Below, piece by piece: positions 1 to 60,597 of a DNA stretch of 64,000 nt. The notes under the pieces are model-generated. The model saw only the letters and a program-made list of their open reading frames with translations, made no database searches and was not told the origin of the DNA. Source of the DNA: Candidatus Izemoplasmatales bacterium (GTDB taxonomy: Bacteria; Bacillota_I; Bacilli_A; Izemoplasmatales; Hujiaoplasmataceae). Both the position numbers and the translations under genes were made by a program. Positions within the stretch are counted from its first letter, which is position 1. Every line of letters begins with the position of its first letter. The DNA lies in contig JBMNEZ010000001.1 in the NCBI GenBank assembly GCA_050949045.1, forward strand, positions 108,716-172,715, in the 5' to 3' direction.

Positions 1-3000
1 CTGTGTTTTTCTCTTTTGCTTCTAGGAGCGGGGAGCGTATATGCGACAGTATACAATCACCATTTCTATGGCGAAGACTGGACATGGAGTCCTTCTGCTA
101 AAAGTGCTGAAGAAGCCAAGGCCAATGCAATTAAGGTTGCAGAGCAAATCGCTGCTGAAGGCCAGGTACTTTTAAAGAATGAGAATAGTACCTTGCCTCT
201 TAGTGGAGATGAATGGCTGACTGTTTTTTCTACTACCAGCACAAAAGATTTAGCTTCTTACATTTCCGGTATAGAGGCTGGAGGCTTTAAGGTACACAGT
301 ACGACCTCAACCGATGTAAGCAAGTACACTCCAAGCGATATGCGCGCACATAGTTCCAGCGATGTAGCTGTAATTATTATGAGTGGAGAAGCTGAATCAA
401 AAGGCGATTTCTTTAGTCCTGGTCCTTTTGGTGGCGGTGGTGGAGAAGGCGGATCTACAGCTAGCCTTGTCGAACCGGAAGACAATAAGGATGCTTATGG
501 CAATACTTACAAGCTTCCTAGCGGAAAAGATTTCGTACACAGGTTTTCTCCGATGAAAAAGGTAGGAGAAGAGACAGTAGCATACAAACACAGTTTACAA
601 CTTCAAAACAAAGATGAAGAAATTATTAAGTATGCTAAAGACAATTTTAAAACAGTCATTGTTTTGCTTCAAAACGATATACCTACCGAAATCGGCTCGC
701 TTAAAATTGATCCTGGCATTGATGCCATTCTACTCGCGGGGCGTTTAGGAAATTACGGACATGAGCAAATAGGCTATGTTTTAAACGGCTCAGTTAACCC
801 CTCTGGGAGAACGGTAGACCTTTGGGCATGGGATCATTCAGGGCGTCCTTCTTGGTTCAACGACGGGAATACTAACAATATTTTCAGAAATGCAACTCAA
901 GAAAGCGAATCAGATGTTTCGAATATGGGAATCACATCAGCGTTCCGTGTTGGTGAAGGATCTATATATTATGAGAGATCAGAGGCGTATTCTAAAGCCG
1001 ATGATGAAACATATCCATATTATAAGAGAAGACCGCACGCTACAGGTGAAATTACTCCTCACGTATTTACTGTGCAGTATGAAGAGGATATTTACACTGG
1101 ATACCGTTACTATGAAACCGCCGCAACAGAGGTAGCTTTGGGCAATTATGCCGCAGCTGGTTACGGCATCGACGGCGAAGCTTTTTATTACGATTCGGTT
1201 ATCTATCCTTTCGGTTACGGGCTCAGTTATACCTCATTTGAATGGGAAGTAGTGAGTTCAGACCTTAGCGAATGGGCCAGAGTTTTGGCTTCTGAAAGCT
1301 CAAGCATCAATTTCCAAACCGGCGAAATAACCGTTAAGGTAAAAGTTACCAACGTTGGTTTGGTACCGGGCAAGGACGTAGTGGAAATTTACGGACACGC
1401 ACCATATTACAAGAATGGTGTTTCTAAAGCGGAACACGTACTTGTAGGCTTTGAAAAAACTGGAATAATCCAGCCTGGTAAATCGCAGGTAGTTACTGTT
1501 TCTGTAAACGTTCAAGATCTTGCTTCGTATGATTACCTTGATGCTAACGGAAACGGCAACACAGGCTATGAGCTTGATAAAGTCGCAGATGCCGACTCAA
1601 AAGGCAACCCCTTACATGATAGCACTGGTAAATACCAGCTCCGTCTCATGAAAAACAGCCATGAATATGGCAATGACGATGCGGCTGAAATGACGATTGA
1701 TCTTGCTAGCCCTTCGAGAGATTATTTCCTTAAACTCGATGACTTCACAGGAAACAGCGTCGACAATTTGTTCTCCGGAAAAGACATAAACAACACACTC
1801 GGATATGATCCAGGGACAGGTAAAACGCTGGTTGAAGAAGGCAAAATGACGATCCTAACCCGTGCAGATTTTGCAGGAACTTGGCCTCAGGCTGCGGGAA
1901 CCACCACAGGTCCTAGCGGCGAAGAAAAAGGCTGGGATCTCGTAAGAAGCGACGAATATTACACTATGATTTCTGAGTTCGCTGATTACAACGGAGAAAA
2001 TTGGCAAGAGTTTTATAAGATAGTAAATAACGTAGAAACAATTCCTGCTGAAATAACAAATGAAGATAAAGCCGGTTTTGCTTGGTCTATTGACGCAGCA
2101 GAATTTGCAACGCTTACAACGGCTAAATACACACCTGAAGGCGGCACAGAACAAACAATTAATTGGGTACAAAGAGACCCAGCTGCCAATCTTTCTGAAC
2201 TTCAAGAAAGCGATGATTGGCTGTGGTTTGCTGACATGATCAAGTATGAGTACAATGACGGTGGTATTGGCACATACATGTGGACCAAGTTTATGAACCA
2301 GCTGACCTACAACGAGATGGTAGAATGGGTTACTAACGGTGGCAGAAGGACATCGGCCATTGATTCAGTAGGTAAGAGAGCGGCGGAATATGTGGACTCC
2401 AGTATAAGAATGGGAGGCACAAACCAAATTAGTTATGGTTATAATTCTGTTTCTAGCCGCACTTGGAATAAGGAACTTGCAAAGAAGAGAGGCATATGCA
2501 TCGGCGAAACTGCTCTCTTTGATGGAAAAGAGGCATGGTATGCACCGGCATGCGACTTACACCGTAGCCCGTTTGCAGGTCGTAACGACGAGTATTGGTC
2601 AGAAGACGGTTTCTTCTCAGGCTGGATGGCAGGCAGCGTGCTTGCGGGCACTCAGTCCACAGGAGTAATTTGTACCATCAAGCACTTTGCTCTCAATGAA
2701 AGCGAGAACATGAGACAAAGCTTACATACATACCTTTCTGAACAAACTTTCCGTGAGCTGTATCTACCCGCATTCAAAATTTGTATGCAAGAATGCGGTG
2801 CACAAGGTGTAATGACTGCATATAACTGTATTGGTGATATGCACGCATCTTCAGCTTACAATTTCCTTGTTGGTATGACCGAAAAAGAATGGGGCTTCGA
2901 CGGCTTCAATATTTGTGACGCTGCCGATCCTTGGAAAGACTTCTACACTCATGACATGAGTCTCCGCTCAGGCGGGACGATGTTCCTATGCGATTGGAGA

Positions 3001-4152
3001 GCATCCAAAGAATATACTCCCGGTGATAAAGGGAACCTTGTTCAACTTTATCCTACTGGTGTATATAACGTAACTGATAACAAAGTCTATGTTAGAGAAA
3101 ACGGTCAAGTAAAAGATTCTCCTGTAACGGTAGAATCATACACCAGCTGGTATTGGCTGCGATATCAAGTAATGCGTTCACTGTTTGTGGAAGCAAACAG
3201 CAATATCGCCAATAACGGCCTTAAACTTGACAACTTCAAGGATGCTACCTTGGCTGATGGAGCACAAGCGGTGGCCTATACAGCTAATATTGGGCTTGAA
3301 GGCGCAGATGCTTCTATTAGTACTTACACAGTAACTAGCGGCGCATTACCCAAAGGCTTATCAATTTCTAACGCCGGTGCGGTTACAGGCACTCCCACCG
3401 AAGCAGGCGAGTTCACATTTAAGGTTAAATTCGTAAACGGATACTGGATTACAAAAGAAGCTACTTTCAATTTAACTGTGACCCCTTGCTTTACGATTGG
3501 TAGCGAAACTGAATTGAACGCTTTAGAAGTTGGCGCTGCTTTTGAAGGCTATATTGAATCAGAAGTAATTAAGATTGATGATACCTATACTTCCATAACA
3601 TATGAACTTGCTCAAGGAAGCGCACTGCCCGAAGGGCTTACACTTTCAAAAACCGACGGCTTGATTTCGGGTACGCCTACGGTTCCGGGAACTTATAGTG
3701 TTACGTTTAATATAACACCTAAAAAAGCATCATCCGGCGGTGGTGGCGGCGGCTTCCCATGGGGTCCACGTCCAGGCAGCAGTTCAACTGTTTACAATTA
3801 CACGGTCACTTTCGTTGTAACCGGAGATCCAATTGTTGAACCTAGCGGTCCCTTCTTCAGAATTGTTGATGGATTTGTTGAATATTCTGAAGATAACGAA
3901 ACTTGGGTACAAGTAATTGAGGTATCCGAACTGCAAGGCGACAAGGGCGACAAGGGCGACAAGGGCGATAAAGGTGACAAGGGCGACAAGGGCGATGCTG
4001 GCGCAGCTGGTCCTGCCGGTCCTGCCGGTCCTGCTGGAAAAGATGCAGAACCGGTAAGCGGATGCGGAAGCTCGCTAACCGGAACCGGAATCCTCGTTAC
4101 CGGATTGCTGTCTCTCGGAGTACTATTCTTAAAACGCAGGAAGTCTGATTAA
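1..4152 (+). CDS. Giant secreted GH3-family glycosidase A (5'-partial): permuted GH3 core, 2 He_PIG-type Ig domains, collagen-like stalk, Cys-containing C-terminal sorting signal
   Basis: Frame 1 is open from nt 1 (LCFSLLLLGAGSVYA/T looks like the end of a signal peptide), so the real start lies upstream and the track's TTG at 16 is internal. GH3 motifs occur in reversed order. First LLKNENSTLPL and NPSGRT (alpha/beta-sandwich domain). Then [12 protein letters not shown] and GKDVVEIY (Fn3-like). Then HRSPFAGRNDEYWSEDG, KHFALNESE and WGFDGFNICDA (barrel domain). Two LP.GL...G.(V/I)(T/S)GTPT units, (G-X-Y)12, and the terminus PVSGCGSS + TM + KRRKSD. Confidence 0.85.
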   Translation: MCFSLLLLGAGSVYATVYNHHFYGEDWTWSPSAKSAEEAKANAIKVAEQIAAEGQVLLKNENSTLPLSGDEWLTVFSTTSTKDLASYISGIEAGGFKVHSTTSTDVSKYTPSDMRAHSSSDVAVIIMSGEAESKGDFFSPGPFGGGGGEGGSTASLVEPEDNKDAYGNTYKLPSGKDFVHRFSPMKKVGEETVAYKHSLQLQNKDEEIIKYAKDNFKTVIVLLQNDIPTEIGSLKIDPGIDAILLAGRLGNYGHEQIGYVLNGSVNPSGRTVDLWAWDHSGRPSWFNDGNTNNIFRNATQESESDVSNMGITSAFRVGEGSIYYERSEAYSKADDETYPYYKRRPHATGEITPHVFTVQYEEDIYTGYRYYETAATEVALGNYAAAGYGIDGEAFYYDSVIYPFGYGLSYTSFEWEVVSSDLSEWARVLASESSSINFQTGEITVKVKVTNVGLVPGKDVVEIYGHAPYYKNGVSKAEHVLVGFEKTGIIQPGKSQVVTVSVNVQDLASYDYLDANGNGNTGYELDKVADADSKGNPLHDSTGKYQLRLMKNSHEYGNDDAAEMTIDLASPSRDYFLKLDDFTGNSVDNLFSGKDINNTLGYDPGTGKTLVEEGKMTILTRADFAGTWPQAAGTTTGPSGEEKGWDLVRSDEYYTMISEFADYNGENWQEFYKIVNNVETIPAEITNEDKAGFAWSIDAAEFATLTTAKYTPEGGTEQTINWVQRDPAANLSELQESDDWLWFADMIKYEYNDGGIGTYMWTKFMNQLTYNEMVEWVTNGGRRTSAIDSVGKRAAEYVDSSIRMGGTNQISYGYNSVSSRTWNKELAKKRGICIGETALFDGKEAWYAPACDLHRSPFAGRNDEYWSEDGFFSGWMAGSVLAGTQSTGVICTIKHFALNESENMRQSLHTYLSEQTFRELYLPAFKICMQECGAQGVMTAYNCIGDMHASSAYNFLVGMTEKEWGFDGFNICDAADPWKDFYTHDMSLRSGGTMFLCDWRASKEYTPGDKGNLVQLYPTGVYNVTDNKVYVRENGQVKDSPVTVESYTSWYWLRYQVMRSLFVEANSNIANNGLKLDNFKDATLADGAQAVAYTANIGLEGADASISTYTVTSGALPKGLSISNAGAVTGTPTEAGEFTFKVKFVNGYWITKEATFNLTVTPCFTIGSETELNALEVGAAFEGYIESEVIKIDDTYTSITYELAQGSALPEGLTLSKTDGLISGTPTVPGTYSVTFNITPKKASSGGGGGGFPWGPRPGSSSTVYNYTVTFVVTGDPIVEPSGPFFRIVDGFVEYSEDNETWVQVIEVSELQGDKGDKGDKGDKGDKGDKGDAGAAGPAGPAGPAGKDAEPVSGCGSSLTGTGILVTGLLSLGVLFLKRRKSD
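3937..4044 (+). repeat. Collagen-like (G-X-Y)12 tract; first six triplets are a 9-bp GGCGACAAG-type tandem repeat
   Basis: In-frame [36 protein letters not shown] read directly from the sequence. Confidence 0.9.
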
Positions 4153-5810: not shown

Positions 5811-5826
5811 TTGAGGAGAAGTGCTA

Positions 5827-8769
5827 ATGATTTTTAAACGCTTATTAGAAAAAAAACCATCGCGTTTTTGGTTTATATTCACGGTTATTATCAGCGTATT
5901 AATGATTGCAATCAATGCTGTCGCCATTTATTGGAGCGGTATAATCAGCATTGCATTACGCGGTGATATAGCGCACAAGGCGGAAAATGCCGAGGATGCA
6001 GTGGTGTATTACGAAAAAAGCACCTCAAGCAAGGATGAAGCTAATGCCCAAGCGCAAAGCATTACGCAAAGGATTGCCGAAGAGGGCTTTATTTTGTTGA
6101 AAAACGACAACGCCTTGCCTTTGAAAAAATCTGCGCAAGTGTCCGTCTTTGGCAAAAACTCTGTTAATCTCGTTTATGGCGGCTCGGGCTCGGGTGGTGG
6201 CGACGCTACGCTTCCAAAAAAGACGCTTTATGAAAGTCTTACATCACAGGGGATTGTTTTTAATCCAGTACTGAAAGCGTTTTACGAGGATAACACTCTA
6301 TCGGGACCCGGTAGAGAAAGTAATTCCGGCGACTTAGACAGTGGCGATACAGTCACTATTGGAACTGGAGAAACGCCACAAAGCAGTTATACCAACACTG
6401 TCAAGAACAGTTATGCAGATTATGCGGACGCGGCCATTGTCGTTTTTTCAAGAGTTGGCGGCGAAGGCTTTGATTTGCCTATGGTAGGCGCCAACGGCGC
6501 AAGGCATTATCTTGATTTAGATACAAATGAAAGAGACTTGCTTGAAAGTGTTTGTGCATCTGACTTTGAACATGTAATTGTTGTTCTCAACACTTTAAAC
6601 ATAATGGAAACAGGCTTTTTAAATGAATATGACGGAAAAATAGATGCCTGTATTTGGATTGGAGGACCAGGTTCAACAGGGATTATGGCCTTGGGGAGAA
6701 TACTTGACGGTACTGTTACTCCTTCAGGCCATACAACCAACACATGGCCCTATGATTTTAAAAAAGATCCTACTTGGAATAATTTTTCTGAAAGAGGAAT
6801 ATCAAAAGGTGACATCTATTTTAACACCGAAACGAACAAAAACACAGCGTATAACTACGTAAATTATGAAGAAGGAATTTATGTCGGTTATCGTTATTAT
6901 GAGACGCGCGCTGCACAGGAACGTGAAAAAAACGGAAACGATAATTGGTATATAGAAAACGTTGCATTTCCATTCGGTTATGGGTTAAGTTACACCACTT
7001 TTAAATGGGAATTGACAAATAGTCAAAGCATAGATGGTGTTAAAATAAATAAGAATGGAAATTACTCAGTAACAGTCAATGTAATTAATACAGGTTCTTA
7101 TAAGGGCAAGGAAGTAGTTCAAATGTATGCAAAACTTCCTTATACAGCAAATGGTGTAGAGAAACCTTATGTGGTTTTGTGCGGTTATGCAAAAACAGAT
7201 ATGCTGTACCCTACCGCTGAAAAAGCAATTAATGCAGAAGAGGCAGCGGGAAATAAAAAGCCAAATTCCCAAAAAATCACGATCACGTTTTCGCCTTATG
7301 ATATCGCTTCTTACGATTACAGCAAAAAAAGCGGTCACGAAGGATACATAATTGAAAGTGGTGCTTATGAGCTCTTGTTGTGCAGCGATGCACACACAAG
7401 CAAGTTTTCTGTGCCGTTTAGTGTCGAAGATGACATTGTTTACGAAAACGATCCCATAACAAATACAAGAGTAGTCAACAGATACACCAATTGCGCAGAC
7501 AGTGCTTTCAATTCGGATACGATGATTGCGGACTTCCAAATGAGCAGAAATGACTTATCTATCCTACCGGATGCGTATCAGGACGCCGACAGACAAGTTA
7601 CAACTGAGTTTATCAACTTAATTGCAGACTTAACGCATAATAATCCAAACGCCGCCGGTATTACTGAAATGCCTAAACAAGGTAAGGTTGCAACAATGGA
7701 TTTGGCGGGAGTGTTACAATATGACGCGGCAACCCAGACTTACTACGCAAACTACGATGACAATGCGAGTTGGGATGTTATTCTAGATGCTGTTTCTATC
7801 AACTCCATGCTAAATATGTATAACACCGCTGCATTTAAAACTAACAAGATCGATAACATTAACAAGCCTCAGACACTCGAATCCGACGGACCTGTGGGAT
7901 GGTGTAATTTCATTTCGCTTACTGATCCAACTTGGAAAGGAAACAATGTTTATACCTCACAGGTTGTTATGTCCGCAACATGGAATGTCGATTTAATCGA
8001 GGAAATGGGCAAATGCGTAGGGGAAGAAGGCTTATGGGGCGCAGTTAACTCCGATGGTCGCCCTTACAGCGGCTGGTATGCGCCTGGAGTGAATATCCAT
8101 CGCTCGCAATTTGGCGGTAGAAACTTTGAGTATTTTTCTGAAGATAGCTATTTGACAGGCACAATGGGCGCAGCGGAAATAAAAGGCTGCCAGTCAAAGG
8201 GCGTTTATTGCTATGTGAAGCATTTTGCGGTAAACGAACAGGAAACTCATCGAATGGGGGCCTGCAACTGGCTTACCGAGCAGGCTTTGCGTGAACTGTA
8301 TCTAAAACCGTTTGAGATAGTGGTCAAGCAGGGAAAAACAAGAGCCATGATGTCCAGCTTTACACGTATAGGAACAAGATGGACAGGCGGAGATTATAGG
8401 CTTTTGACAGAGATATTACGTGACGAATGGGGATTTAGAGGCACAGTTATTTGCGATTACAATGCGACAAGCAATTTTATGAATTGTAGACAAATGGTAT
8501 ATGCAGGCGGAGATTTAAATCTTTGTTCCTCCATTAGTAAGCAATGGAATGACTTTGACAGTACATCTGCCGTAGATGTAACAATGTTGAGAAACGCAAC
8601 AAAAAATGTGCTCTATACTGTGGCCAACTCAAACGCTATGAATAGTCTAAGCTATTATTACACGCTCGCTACATGGAAGATTTGCCTTATTGTGGCAGAT
8701 GTTTTGACTGTGTTGGGTCTTGCAGTATGGGGAATTCTAGCCATTCGCAAATCACGTAAAATGCTTTAA
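5827..8769 (+). CDS. Doubly membrane-anchored (N- and C-terminal TM) permuted GH3 glycosidase A'
   Basis: I prefer the ATG at 5827 (GAGGAG 8 nt upstream) over the track's GTG at 5821. N-terminal TM FWFIFTVIISVLMIAINAVAIYW. Motif order: LLKNDNALPL, VGGEGFDL, TPSGHT, then [12 protein letters not shown] and GKEVVQMY, then SDGPVGW, HRSQFGGRNFEYFSEDS, KHFAVNEQETHR, WGFRGTVICDYN. C-terminal TWKICLIVADVLTVLGLAVWGILAIRKSRKML. Confidence 0.85.
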   Translation: MIFKRLLEKKPSRFWFIFTVIISVLMIAINAVAIYWSGIISIALRGDIAHKAENAEDAVVYYEKSTSSKDEANAQAQSITQRIAEEGFILLKNDNALPLKKSAQVSVFGKNSVNLVYGGSGSGGGDATLPKKTLYESLTSQGIVFNPVLKAFYEDNTLSGPGRESNSGDLDSGDTVTIGTGETPQSSYTNTVKNSYADYADAAIVVFSRVGGEGFDLPMVGANGARHYLDLDTNERDLLESVCASDFEHVIVVLNTLNIMETGFLNEYDGKIDACIWIGGPGSTGIMALGRILDGTVTPSGHTTNTWPYDFKKDPTWNNFSERGISKGDIYFNTETNKNTAYNYVNYEEGIYVGYRYYETRAAQEREKNGNDNWYIENVAFPFGYGLSYTTFKWELTNSQSIDGVKINKNGNYSVTVNVINTGSYKGKEVVQMYAKLPYTANGVEKPYVVLCGYAKTDMLYPTAEKAINAEEAAGNKKPNSQKITITFSPYDIASYDYSKKSGHEGYIIESGAYELLLCSDAHTSKFSVPFSVEDDIVYENDPITNTRVVNRYTNCADSAFNSDTMIADFQMSRNDLSILPDAYQDADRQVTTEFINLIADLTHNNPNAAGITEMPKQGKVATMDLAGVLQYDAATQTYYANYDDNASWDVILDAVSINSMLNMYNTAAFKTNKIDNINKPQTLESDGPVGWCNFISLTDPTWKGNNVYTSQVVMSATWNVDLIEEMGKCVGEEGLWGAVNSDGRPYSGWYAPGVNIHRSQFGGRNFEYFSEDSYLTGTMGAAEIKGCQSKGVYCYVKHFAVNEQETHRMGACNWLTEQALRELYLKPFEIVVKQGKTRAMMSSFTRIGTRWTGGDYRLLTEILRDEWGFRGTVICDYNATSNFMNCRQMVYAGGDLNLCSSISKQWNDFDSTSAVDVTMLRNATKNVLYTVANSNAMNSLSYYYTLATWKICLIVADVLTVLGLAVWGILAIRKSRKML

Positions 8770-9311: not shown

Positions 9312-10730
9312 ATGTTTCTTTCAACTTTTCAAAACAGCAACTATTTTTACTGGCAATTGGTTATCCAATTTGGGATTGTATCGTTAATGTTACTGATTGC
9401 CAATATTATCCGACGAAAAGTTAAAGTATTCAGGAATTTGTTGTTTCCTACCGCTATCATAGCGGGGTTTATCGGATTAGGCGTCAAGTATCTGATTTTT
9501 GGATTAGATGTTCAAATTGACGGACAATTGATATTGACCAATGATTTTTTAGAAGCGGTTACCTATCATACCATTGCGCTCGGATTTATTTCTATGGGAT
9601 TAAAAAGTTTCAAAGATGAAAGCACCAAAAAATATAATGGCAAACCTTTTAAAACGGGTTTGGTTATCGTAAACACATATTTACTACAAGGTATTGTTGG
9701 TGTAGCCATAACGATAATCCTGTCCTATATATTTGTCGAAATAGCTCCTTTTGCCGGATTGCTTTTACCAATGGGCTATGGACAAGGGCCGGGACAGGCA
9801 GCCAATATCGGCGGTTTATTTGAAGAAAACGGTTTTGTCGGTGGGAAGTCATTTGGATTGTCTATTGCGGCCTTCGGCATTCTTTGGGCTTGCACAGCCG
9901 GGATCTATTATATCAATAAAAGATCTAAGGAAGGGAAAATCCAACGAGCTGACGAAGAAATCGCCCAAGTAGTCTCGGCTGAAGAAATCGAATCAATAGA
10001 TGAAATTCCTGTTAGTGAAGCGATTGACAAAATGAGTATTCAAATCATTTTGATCAGTGTCACATATGCTTTGAGTTTTCTATTTATGAAAACAGTAACG
10101 ACATTAATCAACATTAAGGAAGTTACCGGATTAATTTGGGGCTTTAACTTTATTTTTGGAATGCTCTTCGCTATGTTTGTCAAGATGATTTTGAAGGGCC
10201 TAAGAAAAAGCAAACTGATGAAGCGTAAATATACAAACGAATATATGTTAAACCGGATTACCGGTGTGGTATTTGACTATATGATAGTTGCCGGTATTAT
10301 GTCAATCAATATCGAAGTGCTCGCAAATACTGGTTTATGGGTTGGATTGCTGGTAATCACGACCGTTGGGGGCATTTTAACTTACCGTTACTTGCGTTAT
10401 ACGGTCAAGAGAATATACCCGGATTACGAACATCAAGCATTTGCGGTTCTGTTTGGAAATTTAGCCGGGACCGCTTCGAATGGCATCGCTTTATTGCGAG
10501 AAATCGATCCTGATTTTAAAACGCCGGCAGCGGATGACTTAGTCACCGGTTCTTCAACAGCCGTTTTGTTTGGTGCGCCGCTATTGGCGATCACAGCATT
10601 GATATATCAGCCTAAATGGTATTACCTGTGGGGCTCTTGGGTCGTAATGATCATCTTTTTTGTACTTTTTTCTTTCTTACTGTTCAAGAAGCCCGCTAAA
10701 ACGAAAAAGGCAAAAAAACAAACTGATTAA
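9312..10730 (+). CDS. GltS/ESS-family sodium:glutamate-type symporter (putative)
   Basis: Polytopic membrane protein. The layout and local motifs resemble E. coli GltS as I recall it: an N-terminal helix then a basic loop (IIRRKVKVFRNLLFPTAIIAGFIGLG), a central GQGPGQAANIGGLFEE region and a C-terminal GNLAGTASNGIALL. GGAGG ribosome-binding site. Confidence 0.55.
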   Translation: MFLSTFQNSNYFYWQLVIQFGIVSLMLLIANIIRRKVKVFRNLLFPTAIIAGFIGLGVKYLIFGLDVQIDGQLILTNDFLEAVTYHTIALGFISMGLKSFKDESTKKYNGKPFKTGLVIVNTYLLQGIVGVAITIILSYIFVEIAPFAGLLLPMGYGQGPGQAANIGGLFEENGFVGGKSFGLSIAAFGILWACTAGIYYINKRSKEGKIQRADEEIAQVVSAEEIESIDEIPVSEAIDKMSIQIILISVTYALSFLFMKTVTTLINIKEVTGLIWGFNFIFGMLFAMFVKMILKGLRKSKLMKRKYTNEYMLNRITGVVFDYMIVAGIMSINIEVLANTGLWVGLLVITTVGGILTYRYLRYTVKRIYPDYEHQAFAVLFGNLAGTASNGIALLREIDPDFKTPAADDLVTGSSTAVLFGAPLLAITALIYQPKWYYLWGSWVVMIIFFVLFSFLLFKKPAKTKKAKKQTD

Positions 10731-10898: not shown

Positions 10899-11864
10899 TT
10901 ATTCAAAAGGGTATTTAAGTTTGATCAACTTACGTATCTGGTCGAGATAAGACATTGATTCTCTCGATGCTTCATGAGTCATGATTGGATCTTCCAACAA
11001 GCCGTTTTCGATATCATCCGCAAACGCGATAATTTCATGGACAAAACCGTCGCCTTTATAAGGGATTGTGATTTTTTTGCCATCGATGGATACTACTTGA
11101 CAGCCGAAAAATCTTTTAAGTTCGATGCAGGAGTTGCTGTACTCCAGTCTGGCTTTGTTTGAGAGGAACCTTTTCATACTGGAGCGAAGTCTGATTTTTG
11201 CATCGTTTTCATCGGTAATGAGGACGTCGCATTCGGAGTCTACTCCGGTTTTGGTGAATGCGGCGCTTGCGACAATGGTTTTCACCGGCACTTTCTTCAC
11301 ATAGTTATACAGGCTGAGATTATATACTCCCAAATCGAGCAGGCTTCCTCCTGCCAGATCAGGGTTCATCAGCCTTTTTTTAGGAGAACTGAACAGGGCC
11401 AAGGGATGACCAAACTCAATGGTTGCCTTTTTGAGATCGCCAAGTTTTCCGGAATCAACCAGACTTTTCACATATTTTACAGCAGGGAGAAACCTTGTCC
11501 ACAGCGCTTCCATTATTAAGACATTGTTCGTTTTGGCTGCTTTGATTAGTTCTTCATATTGATGTAGATTGACGGTGATCGGTTTCTCGACGAGGACATG
11601 CTTTTTGTTCTTGATGAACAACAAAGCCAGCTCATAGTGGAAGGTATGAGGCGTTGCGATGTATGCCGCATCGATGACATCGCTTTTTGCCATATCCGAG
11701 TAACTGGAGAATGCATGTTCGAGACCAAGCGCTTTTTTGTATGCTTCAGCCTTATCGATTGTCCGCGAAGCAACAGCGGTTATCACGGCGTTATCGACCA
11801 ACTTGATATCTTTGCAGAATCTCTTGGCGATTCCGCCGGCACCGACGATACCGAATCTTACCAT
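10899..11864 (-). CDS. Gfo/Idh/MocA-family NAD(P)-dependent oxidoreductase
   Basis: I moved the start to MVRFGIVGAGGIAKRF (GGAGGA 6 nt upstream). Rossmann GxGxxA motif, and EKP motif (VLVEKPITV). Confidence 0.8.
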   Translation of the reverse strand: MVRFGIVGAGGIAKRFCKDIKLVDNAVITAVASRTIDKAEAYKKALGLEHAFSSYSDMAKSDVIDAAYIATPHTFHYELALLFIKNKKHVLVEKPITVNLHQYEELIKAAKTNNVLIMEALWTRFLPAVKYVKSLVDSGKLGDLKKATIEFGHPLALFSSPKKRLMNPDLAGGSLLDLGVYNLSLYNYVKKVPVKTIVASAAFTKTGVDSECDVLITDENDAKIRLRSSMKRFLSNKARLEYSNSCIELKRFFGCQVVSIDGKKITIPYKGDGFVHEIIAFADDIENGLLEDPIMTHEASRESMSYLDQIRKLIKLKYPFE

Positions 11865-12076
11865 TAGACGTCCTCCGTTTAGAATTGACTTTTTTACAGA
11901 AAAGCCAATATGCATAATCAAACGATGATTTTTTGTTTCTGTGATAGAGCATACCAAAGATGGTTTGACAGATATTATTTTATGCGAATTCATCGAAATG
12001 CACAATATCAATGAAAGGATTTCCGTAAACCGTTGACGGTAGTTTATCTGATCTTATGCCAAAGTCAATAAATGAA

Positions 12077-12085
12077 TGGTATAAT
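12077..12085 (+). promoter_or_regulatory. Extended -10 element (TGgTATAAT) upstream of the CPBP gene
   Basis: TGGTATAAT lies ~155 nt upstream of the ATG at 12243, in the divergent intergenic region. Confidence 0.35.
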
Positions 12086-12242: not shown

Positions 12243-13046
12243 ATGGCAAACTTGATTAAACACAAGAAAATCTTGATAATTCTCACATCATTATTCATTT
12301 TGGTGATCCTGGCGAGCCAATTTTTGCGATTGACGTTCTTTACCGATGATCTGACAAAGAAAATGGCCAATGATATTTCTATTAGGCTGGGCATGGGATT
12401 GATATTCTTGTTTATGATGTATTACATGGGGTATTGTCTTTTCAAAAAACCCGGGAAATCGTGGATACAATTACTTTTTGTTTTGATTCCGGGTTTATTA
12501 ATATCCATAAACAACTTTCCGATAAGCGCTTATTTGTCATCGCGAACCACTTTAACCGAGCCAATCCATACTGTCTTTTTTTATGCGGTTGAGTGTTTGG
12601 CAATCGGCTTTTTTGAAGAAACGGTTTTTCGAGGAGTTATTCTGTTGGTTTTGTTACAGAGGTTGCCGCAAACCAAGCGCGGAAGTTTCATGGCGATCAT
12701 TGTTTCCTCGGCTCTTTTCGGCTTGACTCATCTTTTCAATTTGTTTGTTGGGGCGGCAGTTCCAGACACGTTGATTCAAGTGGGATATTCTTTTTTGATG
12801 GGGGCTATGTGGAGTGTGATATATATTGCGACAGAAAACTTGCTGTTCCCCATCCTGCTTCATGCATCCTACAACTTTTTCGGAGAGGTGTTGTTTCGCC
12901 TGGGAACCGTATCAAACCGGTTTGATTTTCCGACCATACTGGTCACTTCCATTTTGGCAGTTTTGGCAATCATGGCATATTCGCTTGTTTTCTGTAAAAT
13001 CAAACAAGAGGATCTTGCCAATATCGGCGCAAGCGATTCCCGGTAA
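12243..13046 (+). CDS. CPBP-family (CAAX/Rce1-like, Abi) glutamic intramembrane endopeptidase
   Basis: All three signature motifs occur in order inside TM helices: FEETVFRG (EExxxR), FGLTHL (FxxxH) and HASYNF (HxxxN). About 7-8 predicted TM segments. GGAGGAAG ribosome-binding site. Confidence 0.85.
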   Translation: MANLIKHKKILIILTSLFILVILASQFLRLTFFTDDLTKKMANDISIRLGMGLIFLFMMYYMGYCLFKKPGKSWIQLLFVLIPGLLISINNFPISAYLSSRTTLTEPIHTVFFYAVECLAIGFFEETVFRGVILLVLLQRLPQTKRGSFMAIIVSSALFGLTHLFNLFVGAAVPDTLIQVGYSFLMGAMWSVIYIATENLLFPILLHASYNFFGEVLFRLGTVSNRFDFPTILVTSILAVLAIMAYSLVFCKIKQEDLANIGASDSR

Positions 13047-19090: not shown

Positions 19091-19091
19091 A

Positions 19092-21824: not shown

Positions 21825-22141
21825 TTAACGGATAATGTTGGGATATTCTTTATCACAACGATATTTTACCGCGCATTAAAGAATAATCCCAACATATCCG
21901 CCTGCTTAATTGATTCTTTCTATTGTCTTAAAATCTTTATTGCTTGTTTCTTTTGTTAATCAGACTTCCTGCGTTTTAAGAATAGTACTCCGAGAGACAG
22001 CAATCCGGTAACGAGGATTCCGGTTCCGGTTAGCGAGCTTCCGCATCCGCTTATCGGTTCTGCATCTTTTCCAGCAGGACCGGCAGGACCGGCAGGACCA
22101 GCTGCACCAGCATCGCCCTTGTCGCCCTTGTCACCTTTATC
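21825..22141. repeat. Arm B of the 317-bp inverted repeat (partner 3967-4283)
   Basis: See arm A. Confidence 0.9.
21835..21895 (-). promoter_or_regulatory. Intercistronic stem-loop, identical copy of 4213-4273
   Basis: Same sequence as the module A hairpin, lying inside the inverted repeat. Confidence 0.45.
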
Positions 22142-25100
22142 ACCTTTAGCACCAGGATCACCCTTAGCACCAGGATCTCCCTTAGCACCAGGATCACCCT
22201 TAGCACCAGGATCGCCCTTGGCACCAGGATCGCCCTTAGCACCAGGATCGCCCTTTTCGCCGGCAGGGCCAGCTGGGCCTTCAATGACACCAAGATTAAC
22301 AACAGTGCCGTCTGAGAAGGTTACGAGCAATTCGCCTTCGTCGTTAATTTCCGTGGAAGCGATGCTGCCGTGTCCTACGACGATGGTGTATTCAGCGGAG
22401 CCTTTAATCCATCTATCAAATATTCCTTGTACGGTCACGGTGAAGGTTCCGATTTCGTCTGTGCTTCCAGTGATGATGCCTGTTTTTCTGTTCAATGCCA
22501 AACCTTCAGGCAGCATTCCGGAGGTAATTTGATAATCAAATATCGTTGCTTTATCTTTGGCGCCCGCAAAGCCAACATCAAGACTGACTGTTTCTTTCGC
22601 ATCGACGATGAATTTGCCGGGAGTCCATTGAGATACGATGATACCGTTTTGAGAATGACCTGCATTTGCATATTCGCTATACATGATCATGGCGCTGTAG
22701 CGAACAATGTACCATTGGTTATTGGAATAGTAAATGTCCTGCGTAGTATCCTGAGTTAGCGCTTCAGCTTCTGCAGGAACGAATTCACCGGCTGCGTGAG
22801 CCGCAATAAACCTATAATAACTTACACTGGTTTCTCCTGTAATCTTAACAAGATCGTTGATATTATAGGCTTTGGTAACGTCGAATTCTTCAAATCTGGA
22901 TGCATCCTCACCACCAAGTGTTTTTCTTCCAATATAGACGCCGCCAAGCGAGCCGGTAAGCTCATTGACATATTCCGGATCCCAACGGCCTGAATAGGTG
23001 TTGTTTGCCGGGGTGCCCAGGTTGGTCGTGTTGTTTCCGCCAGGAGCGTGGTTGTGGCCAGTGCGAAGCATCAGGTCTTCAGAAGCGACATTGGCTTGTG
23101 GCGAGTACATATCGGGATGGAAGAAGAAGTTTGGACGGCCCCATTCCTCGCGTACAAGGATGTTGCACATATTGAAGCTCACCGGGGTAGGAACTGAACC
23201 GATACGGCCAAACGCCGACATCGCACCTTCGCTATTGCCTTCTTGAATCGCAATTTGCCATGGCTTCAAGTAGATTTCTCGCAGTGCCTGTTCTGAAACC
23301 CAAGCAAAGAGGTCACCCGAGTTACGATTGGTTTCTTGGTCGTTCAAGAGCATGTGTTTCAAGTGGCTTGTTACGCCGCGATCTTGAATGCCCTTGACAA
23401 CTGCCTGAGCCATCCAGCCGGCATGGAAACCATCTTGTGAATAGTACTCGTTGTTACGACCTGAGAAAGGAGTCCGATGGAAGTTGATAGCCGGATTGAG
23501 CCATTGTGTTCTCTTGGTGTTCGTATTCAAGTTCTTTAGCAGGCCCATGTTGGCAGTGACTGCCCCTTGTTTGTAGCCAAGCTCAAGATTCCAGGTTGCT
23601 CCGATTGTCGCATTGCAGCACCAGGTGTATGTACCGTTAAAGTTAGTCGGGGAGTCAGCAATACCGCCAGTGGGAATTCCGAGGTTGGGAACAGGGTTAC
23701 CATTGTTACCGCCACTCCAGCAAGCTGTATAGAAGTCGTTCCATGTCCACTGGTTCATGAACTTAAGCCAGACTTGTCTGCCCGTCATGCCGGCAAACTT
23801 GCCTTTGGCGATCATGCTGTCGTCATTGAAAACAATGCCGTTTAACTCACCAAACAGGATCCAATCATCGCCCGCAGCTTCTTTTGCCAAAGCTTGATAA
23901 TCGGTATTTCCTACTTTGTTGGGAATTTGACTCCATCCCTCCATCATGGCGGCAGTAACGTCATAAAGTCCCGCTTGATTGCCAAGATAGCCGTTTAGAC
24001 CTGCATCGCCTATAAATAATTTATCAGAGTATACATAATCACCGGTGTTGGTCTTCGTCTGTAACTCCGCTTCCATCACATCAGCGATATAAGAGGCATG
24101 AGTTACTTCTTCAACGTTGGCATCTTCGCCTGTTTTGATAAGTCTCATCGAAGCTGAGAAGTTTTGGCAATTTGTTCTGGTGTTGAAGGAAGCGCCCACT
24201 GCAATCGCCGCTGTGACTCTGACATTGTTGGTTGTTTCGCCGCCCCAACGAGTCGATTTGTATGTTACAAAGTCGCCTACTTCATAAGCTTGAGTGGCAA
24301 TTCCGTTTGCGATCGGGCCGTTGTCTTTAAAGACAATCGTAGCGATAGTTTTGATGACTTTGTAAATTCTATTACTGTCTACCAGATAAGAATTTAGTGG
24401 AAAATCGCCGTCCACTGAAATTGGTGGAATAGCCTCGGTGTCCTTTGTGGCTTTATAAACCGCTTTACTATCTTCCACTCCAAACTCATCATTAGTTTTA
24501 TAAGCAGTTGATGTGGAGAAGTAAGCATACTCAGGCTTCCATTGATTCAGATCATAATTGTGATAATAATCCATCAAATCCGCAAATGCCTTCGTGACGA
24601 TCAAGCCACCGTCAAAGACGCCGGACAGTGTATCGACTTCCGCTTCATTAAATGGTCCCGCAGCATGATTTGCTTTAAACTTGTAATAACTTACATTAGA
24701 TGTTCCTGTCACTCCAGGTGTTACTGTGGTTATTTTGACAACATCGCCGATCACATAGGCTTTTGTAATGTCGAATTCCGAAAAGCTGGAAACAGGAACG
24801 CCGTCAACCGTGGTGACGGGAGCTTTTGGGAATGTCTGGACCATGTCAGATCTGGAAAGCAACTCTTGTTCTTTACTGAACAACTTGTCGTCATCATCAA
24901 TTACGCCGTCGCCGTTCCAATCCACATCATTATTGCGGAGAGAATTGCTTCTGCCGTTTTCTTTCGAGAAAAGGTTCACAATTTCATTGTCGGAAAAGTC
25001 GTCAAGTGCAAGTTTCGCATCGCCGTTGATTGTCAAAGTAATTTTTGCCGTAGCATTTGTGCAATGCGAGGTGTTGGAGGCAAACAGATTGTATACTCCG

Positions 25101-26566
25101 CCTTCCAACTCAAAGCCCTTGAATCCGTTGCTATTCGCATCGGCATAATCATAAGAAGCCATATCTTGCAAATTAACATCGAGTTTCATAATCTGAAATT
25201 CGCCAGGATTGAGAAGATTTGTCTTTGCATAGGCAACCAGATTTACGGAAGCTTTTTCGATTTCTCCTCTTGTATAAGGAGCCTGTGAATAGATTTCCAC
25301 TACTTCTTTGCCTGCCTCATCACCAGTATTCGTCACTTTGACGATCAGAGAAACCGTCTTAATCTTGGCAGGCGAGAATAATGAAGAACTGATATCCGCT
25401 TCATCAAGTTCACTGTGTGTGATCGACAAGATTTCCGTATTAAAGCTGGCATAAGACAAACCATAGCCGAATGGATAGACGACATTGTCGGCATACCATG
25501 CGTCTGCCTGGGCTAAGCCGCCCGGCGAGCCGGCTTTACTCAATACGCCGTCGACATAATTCAGGTTTCCAGCCAGAATTTCCGCGTAAACGGTCTCATA
25601 ATACTTGTATCCGATATAGATATCTTCGGAATAATCCACACCATGCAGAGAAATCGGGACCGGTTGGCTGCCGTCTTCTCTTAAATATTTGTTGCTGCCA
25701 GCATCATTTTGAACGTTCGCAATGGAGTTGTACCAAGTTGGATCGAGCGAAAAGTCTTTTGGCCACACGTCAACGAGTTTGCCAGAGGGGTTCCACTCGC
25801 CGCTTAACAATTTTGGAATCGCCTTGATCCCATTTGCGCCGGGACGTCCGATATACATAATCGCATCCACTTTATTGTCATTATGAAGATTGTACATCTC
25901 CATTGGAGTGGATGTATTAAGAAGAACGACGACTTTGTCGCAGAGAGCCGCGGCCTTATCGATCATAGCAATTTCCTTTGCTGTAAGCATCAGGAAGTGT
26001 TTGAGATCGTTACCGTCTGAGTTTCTAGCCAAGCGTTTATGTTGCCAACCGCCGATGTTTTCTACTGCATCATTGGCAAGTTCGCTTGTTGCTACAGCAA
26101 GGTCTGATCCTTCACCGCCACCGCGTTTGAGAACCACAACTGCCACATCAGCGAATCCTTCAACATCTTTTGAGGCTGCCCCTGCAGCAGCATCCTCATT
26201 GATCAGAGTTGGATTCACCTCAAACCCATCGGCATCAAGCACGTCGATTACTTTATGGCTACCGCCCTGTAAAGAAGCTGCCGCAGCACCGAATACCGTT
26301 ACGCCTTTGGCTTTGCTAAAAGGCAAGGCGTTATCTTTGTTCTTGAGCAGAACAGAGCCTTCTCCGGTAAGTTGAATATTCAATTCTGCAGCTGCGGCAG
26401 TAGCTTCGTCCTGCGTCTCATAGGTGGGAATCGCAATCCCGCCGTTGGCAGCGTAGGCACGAGAGCCGCTAAACAGGTATGCTGATACCGCAGTCGCAAG
26501 CGCCAAAGTCAAAACCAGCATACATTTTCCAAGTATAAACCCGTTGTTTTTGCTTCTTCCTTTCAT
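21956..26566 (-). CDS. Giant secreted GH3-family glycosidase B (1536 aa): permuted GH3 core with large inserts, He_PIG domain, collagen-like stalk, Cys-containing C-terminal sorting signal
   Basis: AGGAGG ribosome-binding site. Signal peptide ...[11 protein letters not shown]. Motif order: [26 protein letters not shown], then [12 protein letters not shown] and GKEVVEIY, then [18 protein letters not shown] and [31 protein letters not shown], (G-X-Y)24, and the terminus PISGCGSS + TM + KRRKSD. Confidence 0.85.
22064..22279 (-). repeat. Collagen-like (G-X-Y)24 tract including 6 x 18-bp GDPGAK repeats
   Basis: GPAGPAGEK(GDPGAK)x6 [27 protein letters not shown] read in frame on the minus strand. 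Confidence 0.9.
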
Positions 26567-46658: not shown

Positions 46659-46758
46659 CTAGGACAGTCGATTTTTCTTTATTCAGTATTAAATTTAGGT
46701 TAAATATATAATATAAATTTGACAATATTTTCCAATGATTTACAGAGGGGGAAAAAAG

Positions 46759-55545: not shown

Positions 55546-55780
55546 TGTTCACCTCTAGACATAAGGAGATCAGTTACTTTTTTCAATCGTTATAACAAAA
55601 TGATGCTAACTATTGAAAAACAAACTCAGATACTGTAAAGGCATTGGTAAGACGCTGTACTCGGTGGGGAAAGACCATGCCGGTAATAGAGAGCCCCATT
55701 TAGCAGACTTTAATAAAAAAGGGGTAATAAGCAACACCAATAGTTTATTGAATTGCTTTCTAATCAGGTAGACCCTATTT
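55542..55780 (-). pseudogene. lgt: Decayed remnant of lgt (patchwork of ~235 nt of an ~820-nt gene)
   Basis: Four collinear patches match the intact lgt: 55542-55570 to 59640-59668 (including the stop), 55622-55660 to 59731-59770, 55664-55685 to 59988-60010, and 55726-55775 to 60291-60340. Deletions of ~215 and ~240 nt separate them. Confidence 0.65.
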
Positions 55781-55884
55781 TTTGACCCTTATGGCTATAC
55801 ATAACAACCGGCTTGTCAAACCGACTATTTTAATATCATATAAATGTAACGAAGCAACTATAGATAACGAATTCGAATAATGGA

Positions 55885-59598: not shown

Positions 59599-59643
59599 TC
59601 AATTTCGTGGAATTTCTTCGATGAACACGAAAATGATTCTCAT
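59599..59643 (-). pseudogene. 14-codon vestige of a LytTR response-regulator 5' end immediately after lgt
   Basis: ATGAGAATCATTTTCGTGTTCATCGAAGAAATTCC... (MRIIFVFIEEIPRN*) aligns with the RR2 start ATGAGAATCAAGGTCGCAATCGTCGAAGACAATCC (MRIKVAIVEDNP). It has the same ATGA overlap with the lgt stop as seen at 55542-55545. Confidence 0.6.
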
Positions 59644-60455: not shown

Positions 60456-60597
60456 GGGACCCCTCCTTATCAAATATTGTATCATTTGTTGGCATATTCA
60501 CGCACTCTCTTTAATGAATTAGGTATGAAAATATTGTTTGAGAAGGATTTTCATCATCTCATCGACAGAATCAATATAGATGTATGATAAAATATAA

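Follow-up and report, generated by a model that had tools for sequence, protein, structure and literature searches.

A predicted CPBP (Rce1-like) protease gene lies among three giant GH3 genes whose products end in a cysteine-containing signal. The question raised by this locus is whether the protease sorts those products. The window, as used here, is the whole 64,000-nucleotide stretch of a Candidatus Izemoplasmatales genome that was analysed (contig JBMNEZ010000001.1, positions 108,716 to 172,715). A sequence-only reading of the window had named the protease as the candidate cognate sorting enzyme, with the caveat that proximity alone is weak evidence. The caveat was right. Conserved synteny in Izemoplasmatales and in 17 Clostridia species now takes the place of proximity and, together with the kept catalytic residues, supports the candidacy. 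The protease is probably the sorting enzyme for a so far uncatalogued C-terminal signal found in Bacillota and in wall-less Mycoplasmatota, composed of x-G-C-[G/K]-S, a helix of about 20 residues, and a K/R cluster, and it would act in a lipidate-then-cut pathway.

The CPBP Gene and Its Product

The CPBP gene (12243..13046, + strand) encodes a predicted CPBP/Rce1-like glutamic intramembrane endopeptidase (Pfam PF02517) of 267 amino acids with an ATG start. A GGAGG sequence lies 8 nucleotides 5' of the ATG, and the start residue is the same in homologues. The PF02517 match spans residues 109-213 and scores 66.4 bits (cut-off 22.4) with an E value of 2.8e-18. The three catalytic motifs named in the sequence-only reading were all located: EETVFR at residues 125-130 (nt 12615-12632), FGLTH at residues 159-163 (nt 12717-12731), and HASYN at residues 207-211 (nt 12861-12875). 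These contain the EExxxR, FxxxH, and HxxxN/D patterns that define membership of the family. Among 30 homologues, with identity down to 27%, there is no variation at E125, E126, R130, F159, H163, or H207, and residue 211 is N or D. From its intact motifs the product is predicted to be an active CPBP protease. Two subfamily signatures are also present, INNFPI (residues 89-94, nt 12507-12524) and QVGYSFLMG (residues 179-187, nt 12777-12803), and relatives of the subfamily occur in at least 435 species. The HR1 homologue is named "CAAX amino terminal protease self-immunity" in one source.

The AlphaFold (AF2) model is confident (pLDDT 93.5) and has approximately eight long transmembrane (TM) helices. 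A Foldseek search of the PDB with this model returned nothing at E < 0.08, and MmRce1 was recovered neither by that search nor by a subfamily profile run against PDB sequences. Both results were taken as neutral. The protein scores below the cut-offs of the myxosortase-type models Mrt_core (NF040914, 23 bits against 100), MrtZ (22.6 against 325), MrtP (14.6 against 250), MrtJ (NF033192, 28 against 75), and MrtS (NF040589, 23.6 against 130).

The gene begins 3474 nucleotides after the end of GH3 module A (8769) and lies 2970 nucleotides before module B (16016), in agreement with the roughly 3.5 and 3 kb given earlier. It follows a 231-nucleotide divergent intergenic region. The upstream neighbour is divergent, so the CPBP gene must have its own promoter. 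The promoter-like element claimed for it can be found at 12056..12085 on the + strand (TG-extended ATGCCA-18-TATAAT). The site itself is not significant, because the region contains 9 such sites and shuffled sequences give 5.2 +/- 2.0, which is within chance. No sortase, rhomboid, or exosortase family member was found among the window ORFs of at least 150 amino acids.

The C-Terminal Tail Signal

As had been claimed, three giant GH3 proteins encoded in the window have a C-terminus made up of P[VI][ST]GC[GA]S, a TM helix, and a basic tail. This ending is referred to below as the GC tail, and its three carriers are proposed substrates. The module A protein (16..4152, + strand) has its N-terminus cut by the window edge and contains He_PIG domains and collagen-like repeats; its tail (AEPVSGCGSS..KRRKSD) is at 4045..4152 on the + strand. 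The module B protein (21956..26566, - strand) is 1536 amino acids in length with an SPI-type signal peptide, and its tail, at 21956..22063 on the - strand, also ends in KRRKSD. The module C protein (39577..44775, + strand) is 1732 amino acids in length with an SPI-type signal peptide and eight He_PIG domains. Its tail, AAPITGCASALTVSTIIMTLLTSMVAGVFIFIRKRQ (AAPITGCASA..IRKRQ), is at 44665..44775 on the + strand, and the orthologues at loci L081 and L083 retain a GC tail. The module A and B tails are not independent of each other because their DNA is 99% identical (3967-4292 versus 22141-21815). The third gene of module A (5821..8769, + strand) encodes a GH3 protein of approximately 1000 amino acids with N- and C-terminal TM helices (TM-GH3). 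An N-terminal lipoprotein is also encoded in each GH3 module.

A set of 30 tails was collected from 21 loci, with the window counted as one locus. All share glycine at position -1 and the cysteine. Position +1 is G or K in 26 of the 30 and position +2 is S in 25, neither of which, unlike the Gly-Cys, was imposed by the tail filter. The cysteine is followed by 24-34 residues in each tail. The carriers have SPI-type N-termini and GH3/He_PIG, Big_3, F5/8-C, or GLUG domains. The same layout characterises the class described by Haft 2023, in which proteins that have an N-terminal signal peptide carry a tripartite tail of a motif with an invariant cysteine, a TM helix, and a basic cluster. The Cys-proximal half of the lipobox consensus (PMC12462473) is similar to the invariant Gly-Cys with G/K-S after it. 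Where a lipobox has a hydrophobic residue at position -3, the Clostridia tails have K or E; the [VI][ST]GC of the window tails is a complete lipobox.

Thirteen tails were scored against curated CTERM models. None reaches MYXO-CTERM (TIGR03382, 8.5-13.2 bits against a cut-off of 15.85) or Synerg-CTERM (best 13.3 against 22.5), and no other curated model, JDVT-CTERM and CGP-CTERM included, is reached by any of them except the LPXTG anchor model TIGR01167. A single tail scores 16.9 against its cut-off of 15.9. That tail has no LPXTG motif before the helix, and the match arises without one because only model positions 12-32, the helix and basic part, are aligned. A tail-profile search of a 5.8-billion-protein database, which picks its candidates by shared words, for that reason returned only 12 short fragments, and these give no phyletic distribution.

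Gene Linkage in Izemoplasmatales and Clostridia

Six genomes of the closest Izemoplasmatales clade, counting that of the window, have the CPBP gene just downstream of a GH3 module or its remnant. This order occurs in the other five as an intact or degraded module (L081/L082, L083, L001, L002, and L092). In L081-L083, L001, and L002 the TM-GH3 orthologue is directly upstream of CPBP, and L092 retains remnants of it; the window differs by an insertion of two genes (9312..10730 and 10899..12011) that separates the TM-GH3 gene from CPBP. At L081 and L083, the two other loci where the C-terminus of the giant GH3 can be read, it is a GC tail. The genes downstream of CPBP vary among these genomes, which fits the earlier view that the protease has no functional link to its neighbours.

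Related loci were chosen by CPBP motifs only and surveyed with at most 10 kb of flanking sequence. The most constant neighbour of the subfamily is an Lgt-family gene, which adjoins CPBP in 64 of 77 informative loci. It is upstream of CPBP on the same strand in 62 of the 77, with a median gap of 1 nucleotide. Among 2420 ORFs in 1.13 Mb of sequence chosen by those motifs alone, 24 genuine GC tails were identified in 18 loci. In 17 of these loci, from 17 Clostridia species, at least one Sec-exported xGC[GK]S-TM-KKK protein is encoded directly upstream of lgt-CPBP, on the same strand, and ends 547-1145 base pairs before CPBP. The three-way linkage of tail protein, lgt, and CPBP is conserved in these loci. 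A dedicated CPBP subfamily linked to the signal, the other mark of the class in Haft 2023, is found in these 17 loci and in the five other Izemoplasmatales genomes. The locus counts are not independent events because the species are related.

A tail protein adjoins lgt-CPBP in only 17 of approximately 69 Clostridia loci, and ftsK is upstream instead in 15. The lgt-CPBP pair is also present in all eight Izemoplasmatales/Acholeplasmataceae loci with enough sequence, where the flanks otherwise differ and no GC tail was found within 10 kb. The pair also occurs in L094, and in L092 its members are separated by 4 kb. A reverse test was made from tail proteins at L088-L091, and no Lgt or CPBP gene was found within 10 kb. 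Adjacency of the tail to Lgt or CPBP is thus not universal, and most substrates, if real, are therefore dispersed.

The Lgt-Family Partner

The Lgt-family gene is a third partner that the sequence-only reading did not include. The window contains the orthologue of the lgt gene paired with CPBP in related loci. This predicted diacylglyceryl transferase gene is at 59640..60485 on the - strand, 47 kb from the window CPBP, and its probable true start is M11 at 60455, which gives 271 amino acids. It matches PF01790 with 115 bits against a gathering score of 24.9, and the partner aligns with E. coli Lgt (5AZB) over residues 23-282 with an E value of 6e-6. TIGR00544 gives 61-83 bits, below the equivalog cut-off of 118.9.

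The sequence GRIGCFLAGCCYG replaces the signature GRxGNFxNxExxG. Relative to E. coli Lgt, C replaces N146 and E151, and L replaces H103. Conservation of this variant across 65 operon Lgts is at least 95%, and these Lgts retain equivalents of Y26, R143, G154, Y235, R239, E243, and R246. The E. coli residues lost from the partner (H103, N146, and E151) were reportedly found to be required, by Pailler in 2012 and Mao in 2016. A second Lgt gene survives as an internally deleted remnant at 55624..55790 on the - strand, where LIRKQFNKLLVLLI corresponds to Lgt residues 47-69 and TEYSVLPMPLQYLSLFF to residues 223-251. Neither lgt nor CPBP appears in the supplementary files of two Izemoplasma culture papers.

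Proposed Pathway and Alternatives

In the proposed pathway, the substrate would be exported via Sec with a type-I signal peptide and retained in the membrane by its C-terminal helix. The Lgt-family operon partner would transfer diacylglycerol to the thiol of the tail cysteine at the outer leaflet. CPBP would then cut just distal to the lipidated cysteine, in the manner of Rce1 at CAAX, and remove the helix and basic tail, so that the enzyme remains surface-bound through its C-terminal lipid. The pairing of lgt with CPBP fits the "lipidate Cys, then cut" logic that had been drawn from Rce1. The chances are roughly even that the two genes form a dedicated two-enzyme "C-terminal lipoprotein" pathway in Bacillota and wall-less Mycoplasmatota, with a divergent GCFxxGCCxG-type Lgt that S-diacylglycerylates the cysteine in inverted topology before CPBP removes the helix. 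The placement of the window CPBP, with the closest substrate gene 3.5 kb away and lgt 47 kb away, was counted against the proposal. The lgt-CPBP loci with no nearby tail, the tail loci with no nearby Lgt or CPBP, the lost residues and low TIGR00544 score of the Lgt partner, and the K or E at position -3 of the Clostridia tails weigh the same way.

The lgt-CPBP pair could instead serve ordinary N-terminal lipoprotein maturation, with CPBP as an LnsB-like tailoring factor or a signal-peptide-clearing protease, and with the GC-tail proteins as Lgt clients at most, or mere neighbours. This appears unlikely. Lgt is the classical enzyme of N-terminal lipoproteins, the GH3 modules each encode such a lipoprotein, and the position behind ftsK in 15 Clostridia loci is a housekeeping context. 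The CPBP-like LnsB of S. aureus is needed for lipoprotein N-acylation, but its catalytic motifs are degenerate and its partner is the NlpC/P60 protein LnsA (PMC7387801). The present subfamily has all of the motifs, and the Pfam scan of the window found no NlpC/P60 gene; an LnsB-like function was rejected on these grounds. Maturation of N-terminal lipoproteins also leaves unexplained why, in five Izemoplasmatales genomes, CPBP follows the GC-tail GH3 module without lgt, and why SPI-type GC-tail proteins come before lgt-CPBP in 17 loci. Rce1-type enzymes cut C-terminal to the modified cysteine, but an N-terminal lipoprotein has to be cut on its other side. About as improbable is that CPBP cleaves the GC tail without prior lipidation, either as a sheddase or with the cysteine in a disulfide, a thioether, or another lipid, and that the Lgt linkage is incidental. 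The missing equivalents of H103, N146, and E151 and the incomplete lipobox of the Clostridia tails would agree with this, and the mBio paper on MrtX cannot exclude cleavage without modification (PMC11980579). The 1-nucleotide median gap in 62 loci, however, suggests coupled function, and the tails do resemble the Cys-proximal half of the lipobox consensus (PMC12462473), with the complete lipobox in the window.

It is very unlikely that CPBP in the Izemoplasmatales clade acts on the upstream TM-GH3, for example by releasing it, and not on the GC-tail proteins. The TM-GH3 and not the giant GH3 is the direct neighbour of CPBP in L081-L083, L001, and L002, but its C-terminal helices have no common motif or cysteine, and the Clostridia loci have GC tails with no such GH3. 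The least probable explanation, and a disfavoured one, is that a CPBP of housekeeping or immunity type (Abi/bacteriocin self-immunity), with no relation to the GH3 genes, lies near them by chance. CPBP genes are numerous in Bacillota, and the name given to the HR1 homologue points the same way, but no bacteriocin genes are present and the synteny is seen repeatedly in two classes whose flanks differ. Bacteriocin immunity was rejected for these reasons.

Comparison with Known Systems

The proposal that Cys-containing C-terminal signals are processed by CPBP proteases was made in 2023 (Haft 2023), as the sequence-only reading accurately stated, and was confirmed for MrtX in 2025 (PMC11980579). 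MrtX cleaves MYXO-CTERM in a Cys-dependent manner, and Lgt is the leading candidate for its unknown lipid transferase, a guess made from processing in E. coli (PMC11980579). The best reading of the present system is as a Bacillota/Mycoplasmatota counterpart of the myxosortase/MYXO-CTERM systems. MrtX (also MrtC and MrtP) and MYXO-CTERM (TIGR03382, "GC_trans_RRR") share with it the glycine before an invariant cysteine, the TM helix, the basic cluster, a CPBP-family glutamic intramembrane protease, and proposed lipidation followed by distal cleavage. MrtX cleavage has been demonstrated experimentally. MrtX belongs to diderm Myxococcota and requires a T2SS for surface delivery, and the present organisms are monoderm or wall-less. 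No lgt linkage is reported for the myxosortases. The MrtJ/JDVT-CTERM two-gene cassettes, MrtS/Synerg-CTERM, and MrtA/CGP-CTERM (Haft 2023) likewise have a small CPBP enzyme beside a Cys-tail target and were found by comparative genomics, but in Proteobacteria, Synergistota, and Thermococcales, with other signature motifs and no Lgt partner.

Eukaryotic and archaeal Rce1 share the Pfam family, the catalytic motifs, and, as proposed here, cleavage after a lipid-modified cysteine, the lipid here being presumed diacylglycerol. The CAAX substrate is cytosolic and prenylated, with 3 residues after the cysteine, whereas the proposed GC-tail substrates lie outside the cytoplasm and have a helical tail of 24-34 residues. 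The proposed pathway also mirrors the N-terminal route of Lgt and LspA, which suggests a C-terminal form of lipoprotein anchoring. In the known route and, as proposed, in this one, an Lgt-family enzyme acts at a Gly/Ala/Ser-Cys junction beside a membrane helix that has a basic end, and the helix is taken off once the cysteine is lipidated. The order is basic-helix-Cys at the N-terminus in one and Cys-helix-basic at the C-terminus in the other. The peptidase of the known route is the aspartyl enzyme LspA and not a CPBP, and the Lgt partner here is variant at N146, E151, and H103.

Sortase/LPXTG anchors have the same tripartite C-terminal layout, but the LPXTG motif is absent here and the host has no cell wall for attachment. 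Izemoplasma is described as wall-less (PMC8397711). A sortase/LPXTG system was rejected for lack of both motif and wall.

Significance

No description of an lgt-CPBP-tail system was found in the literature searched, which is mostly that beyond subscription journals, and earlier publication is possible. The occurrence of CPBP directly after an Lgt-family gene in dozens of species, with substrates adjoining in many, turns the Lgt guess into a specific and testable three-gene cassette. If the proposal is true, the lgt-CPBP operon would identify, for the first time from genomes, the "unknown" lipid transferase for all Cys-containing C-terminal signals, MYXO-CTERM included. The pathway would also replace sortase for the surface display of large enzymes in wall-less organisms, and it offers a possible account of how GH3 enzymes of 1500-1700 amino acids are displayed on such cells. 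The class of system now takes in monoderm Clostridia from the guts of animals as well as wall-less Izemoplasmatales.

The CPBP subfamily, the GC tail, and the variant Lgt type are captured by no NCBIfam model. Current annotation models miss them or possibly mislabel them as LPXTG anchors. The similarity of the helix and basic part to TIGR01167 is a likely source of such misannotation.

CPBP Gene and Protein

Gene linkage in Clostridia and Izemoplasmatales supports the claim of the sequence-only reading that CPBP, an Rce1-like intramembrane protease, is the candidate sorting enzyme for the GC tail (C-terminal Gly-Cys, a transmembrane helix, and basic residues). The proposed system has three components: the GC-tail signal, a transferase of the lipoprotein diacylglyceryl transferase (Lgt) family, and the CPBP protease.

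The CPBP reading frame (12243..13046, + strand) is clean, starts with ATG, has a GGAGG sequence 8 nucleotides 5’ of the start, and encodes 267 residues. The protein scores 66.4 bits against Pfam PF02517 (Rce1-like; gathering score 22.4). The three motifs reported earlier are all confirmed: EETVFR (residues 125-130), FGLTH (159-163), and HASYN (207-211). Across 30 aligned homologues, the most distant at 27% identity, E125, E126, R130, H163, and H207 never vary, and position 211 is occupied by either N or D. The same alignment contains two extra subfamily signatures, INNFPI (N90, N91, and P93 invariant) and QVGYSFLMG (Q179, Y182, S183, and G187 invariant). The AlphaFold2 model is confident (pLDDT 93.5, pTM 0.91) and has approximately 8 long helices. 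A structural comparison with Rce1 recovered no match and was treated as uninformative, not as negative evidence. A CPBP with 100% identity is present in a Candidatus Izemoplasmatales MAG, and the locus is also present in several metagenome assemblies (L084-L087).

The earlier distances from CPBP to GH3 modules A and B (~3.5 kb and ~3 kb) are right. The gene had also been assigned its own promoter-like element. The upstream gene is divergent, so CPBP does need its own promoter; the promoter-like hexamers at 12056-12085 are no commoner than in shuffled sequence. Between module A and CPBP lies a gene (9312-10730, + strand) for a 472-residue multi-pass membrane protein that matches no Pfam family. 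The gene has this position in L084 and L085 too and is absent from the relatives L081 and L083.

Linkage of Tails to CPBP

Related loci were picked by the three CPBP motifs alone, with one genome scanned per species. CPBP relatives are present in at least 435 species. The best 80 loci belong to Izemoplasmatales/Acholeplasmataceae (L001-L011) and to many Clostridia (Oscillospiraceae, Christensenellaceae, Lachnospiraceae, and ‘Eubacteriales’). Every complete ORF of at least 120 residues in 1.13 Mb of these loci, with flanks up to ±10 kb, was screened for a C-terminal tail in which a Cys precedes an uncharged segment with a hydrophobic helix and a final basic cluster. This filter passed 32 of 2420 ORFs. 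Eight of these, seven without and one with Gly-Cys, were spurious and out of frame, and were discarded. This left 24 clean xGC[GKAN][SAG]-helix-K/R tails, distributed over 18 loci.

Seventeen of the 24 tails lie on the CPBP strand and end 547-1145 bp upstream of that gene. Random placement over ±10 kb and both strands would put approximately 2% of tails in this interval, a figure that is not a formal probability because the species are related. The carrier proteins of the Clostridia tails differ (Big_3, F5/8 type C, GLUG, or no Pfam domain), as do the outer flanks of the tail-lgt-CPBP loci. The pooled consensus is [K/E]-[G/S/K]-G-C-[G/K]-S-[A/V/F]-[L/V/I], and the Cys is followed by 24-34 residues; the preferences at +1 and +2 were not imposed by the filter. 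No tail was found within the ±10-kb flanks of eight Mollicutes-type lgt-CPBP loci, and no lgt-CPBP pair within the ±10-kb flanks of independently found tail proteins.

Two tiny Clostridia proteins, P0237 and P0239 (68 and 72 residues), contain both an N-terminal lipobox (LTGC and LVAC) and a C-terminal GC tail, and would be lipidated at both ends if the proposed model is true. Short ORFs encoding the tail alone are present in L089 (9917-10120 and 11885-12055) and likewise in L090 and L091. Each overlaps, in a different frame, the 3’ end of a complete gene upstream of it. A rhamnosidase-like gene precedes one of them, and a gene already bearing its own tail precedes another. The first tail-only ORF (P0242) occurs on 12 contigs. 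These ORFs could be remnants of inter-tail recombination or could reflect frameshift-dependent tail attachment.

The lgt-CPBP Gene Pair

The ~850-bp gene between the tail protein and CPBP encodes an Lgt homologue. Among the 77 loci where 1 kb or more of sequence precedes CPBP, 64 have an adjoining Lgt-family ORF. It lies on the same strand in 62 of them, with a median of 1 nucleotide from the lgt stop to the estimated CPBP start. Each of the eight Izemoplasmatales/Acholeplasmataceae loci that are long enough to tell has the pair, amid neighbours that otherwise vary by genome, as does the additional locus L094.

A second recurrent context of the pair, found in 15 Clostridia species, has ftsK/spoIIIE in place of the tail gene directly before lgt-CPBP (L013, L014, L015, L022, L025, L030, L036, L045, L047, L050, L058, L060, L062, L070, and L080). 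FtsK is confirmed for two of these. This context bears on whether the Lgt is a housekeeping enzyme.

The Lgt partner is a full-length family member (PF01790, 115 bits) and aligns to residues 23-282 of E. coli Lgt (5AZB). It retains equivalents of Y26, R143, G154, Y235, R239, E243, and R246. H103 is changed to L, and GRLGNFINGELWG is replaced by GRIGCFLAGCCYG (N146→C, N149→A, E151→C). The GRIGCFLAGCCYG-type variant is at least 95% conserved across all 65 operon Lgts, and all of them fall under the TIGR00544 equivalog cut-off (61-83 bits against 118.9). N146 and E151 are reportedly important residues of the E. coli enzyme. For the partner gene, the ftsK context points to a housekeeping role, and the sequence divergence to a specialised one.

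The window has an Lgt orthologue at 59640..60485 (- strand), which shares 55-61% identity with the operon Lgts of L004-L011. Its start is probably M11, since homologues begin MYP. A decayed second copy with an internal deletion (55624-55790, - strand) lies between a LytTR regulator and a GT2 gene. Its translated pieces (..LIRKQFNKLLVLLI.. / ..TEYSVLPMPLQYLSLFF..) correspond to Lgt residues 47-69 and 223-251, and the copy fits a duplication of the GH3...Lgt block.

Closest Relatives

In the nearest CPBP clade (48-60% identity to the window CPBP) the lgt-CPBP pair is split, and CPBP follows the GH3 module. L081/L082 and L083 have the order giant GH3, lipoprotein, TM-GH3 (a GH3 with a transmembrane helix at each end), and CPBP, with gaps of 265-275 bp. 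Their giant GH3s end in …AETGCGSALSV…FLRRRH and …ETTGCGSAINI…LRKRH. The TM-GH3 is directly upstream of CPBP in L001 and L002. L092 has TM-GH3 remnants, CPBP, GT2, GH3, a kinase remnant, Lgt, and Glf, which is the order at the right-hand end of the window (GT2 55885.., GH3 56958.., Lgt 59640.., Glf 60598..). The genes downstream of CPBP are different in every genome of the clade. L093 is an exception with an unrelated CPBP context. In the window, two genes have become inserted between module A and CPBP, encoding the 472-residue membrane protein and a GFO/IDH/MocA oxidoreductase. Approximately 37 kb, including modules B and C, lies between CPBP and the GT2-GH3-Lgt-Glf block.

Proposed Pathway and Alternatives

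From the observed gene linkages and sequence features we infer the chemistry of a pathway. The substrate would be exported via Sec and retained by its C-terminal helix. Lgt would then move diacylglycerol onto the tail Cys, CPBP would cut distal to that Cys, and the enzyme would be displayed on the surface by its C-terminal lipid. The same model of lipidation followed by cleavage already exists for MYXO-CTERM (PMC11980579; Haft 2023); the one addition here is Lgt as operon partner of the protease. For MYXO-CTERM the transferase is called ‘unknown’ and Lgt ‘a leading candidate’, the latter only because MrtX works in E. coli, and the authors see two difficulties, an inverted topology and no defined lipobox (PMC11980579). 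The window tails contain [VI][ST]GC, the full lipobox consensus as quoted in a passage of PMC12462473. The likeness is partial, since the tails of relatives keep G-C alone (ETGC, TTGC, KSGC). The lgt-CPBP-tail system makes the question of the lipidating enzyme directly testable.

A chance location of CPBP near the GH3 genes is no longer tenable. Service of the lgt-CPBP pair to N-terminal lipoproteins, for which LnsB is a precedent, is weakened by the intact catalytic motifs of CPBP and by the clade in which CPBP stands alone behind the GH3 module. Cleavage of the tail by CPBP with no lipidation step is less probable than the proposed pathway. Action of CPBP on the adjacent TM-GH3 is less probable still; no motif is conserved there, and this reading is not transferable to Clostridia.

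Comparison with Curated Families

CPBP falls within PF02517 and in no curated subfamily, being far under the cut-offs of MrtJ, MrtS, Mrt_core, MrtP, MrtZ, and MroQ. Thirteen tails scored against NCBIfam 20.0 reach none of its curated C-terminal sorting-domain models except TIGR01167 (LPXTG_anchor). That match, from the tail at 4045-4152 (35 residues; 16.9 bits, cut-off 15.9), covers only the helix and basic residues. The best scores otherwise are 13.2 against 15.85 for MYXO-CTERM and 13.3 against 22.5 for Synerg-CTERM. The TIGR01167 match is likely a route to misannotation, and automated pipelines may label GC-tail proteins of an organism with no cell wall as LPXTG-anchored. PMC8397711 describes Izemoplasma as wall-less, so sortase-type wall anchoring is unavailable to it. 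Full-text literature searches, with subscription journals incompletely covered, turned up neither an lgt-CPBP-tail system nor such a signal. The system is a new variant within the Cys-CTERM/CPBP sorting class.

GC-Tail Proteins and GH3 Modules

Three proteins in the window, all giant GH3 enzymes, end in a Cys-containing tripartite tail. Giant GH3 A (16..4152) has the tail AEPVSGCGSS…KRRKSD, the tail of B (21956..26566, - strand) ends in KRRKSD, and C (39577..44775) has AAPITGCASA…IRKRQ. The tails of A and B share 99% identical DNA over 327 nucleotides and therefore count as one observation. He_PIG domains are present in all three proteins, collagen-like repeats in two, and a type-I signal peptide in both with a complete N-terminus. 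Each of the three modules is composed of a giant GH3, an N-terminal lipoprotein, and a TM-GH3 of ~1000 residues.

Positions 3967-4292 and 22141-21815 form a 99%-identical inverted repeat containing the tail-encoding ends of A and B and ~140 nucleotides downstream. The remainder of the two genes has no duplication at the 99% level. This suggests that the sorting-signal segment underwent gene conversion or recombination. Tandem units of ~270 nucleotides (43131-44642, 72-87% identity) encode the He_PIG Ig-like repeats that immediately precede the tail of C; A and B have collagen-like GDK/GPA repeats ahead of the tail instead.

All six module GH3s (16-4152, 5821-8769, 16016-19114, 21956-26566, 39577-44775, and 46735-49716) look circularly permuted, with the Pfam GH3 C-terminal domain preceding the N-terminal domain. 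The domain order is the usual one in two conventional GH3s, at 50879 and 56958. A 2.5-kb direct duplication (50901-53425 and 56979-59508, 98.7% identity) accounts for these two near-identical genes, of 841 and 816 residues. Two LytTR-type two-component systems (GHKL kinase and LytTR regulator; 33964-35954 and 53483-55545, - strand) flank glycoside-hydrolase genes, and one of them is conserved beside the GH3/GT2 block in L081.
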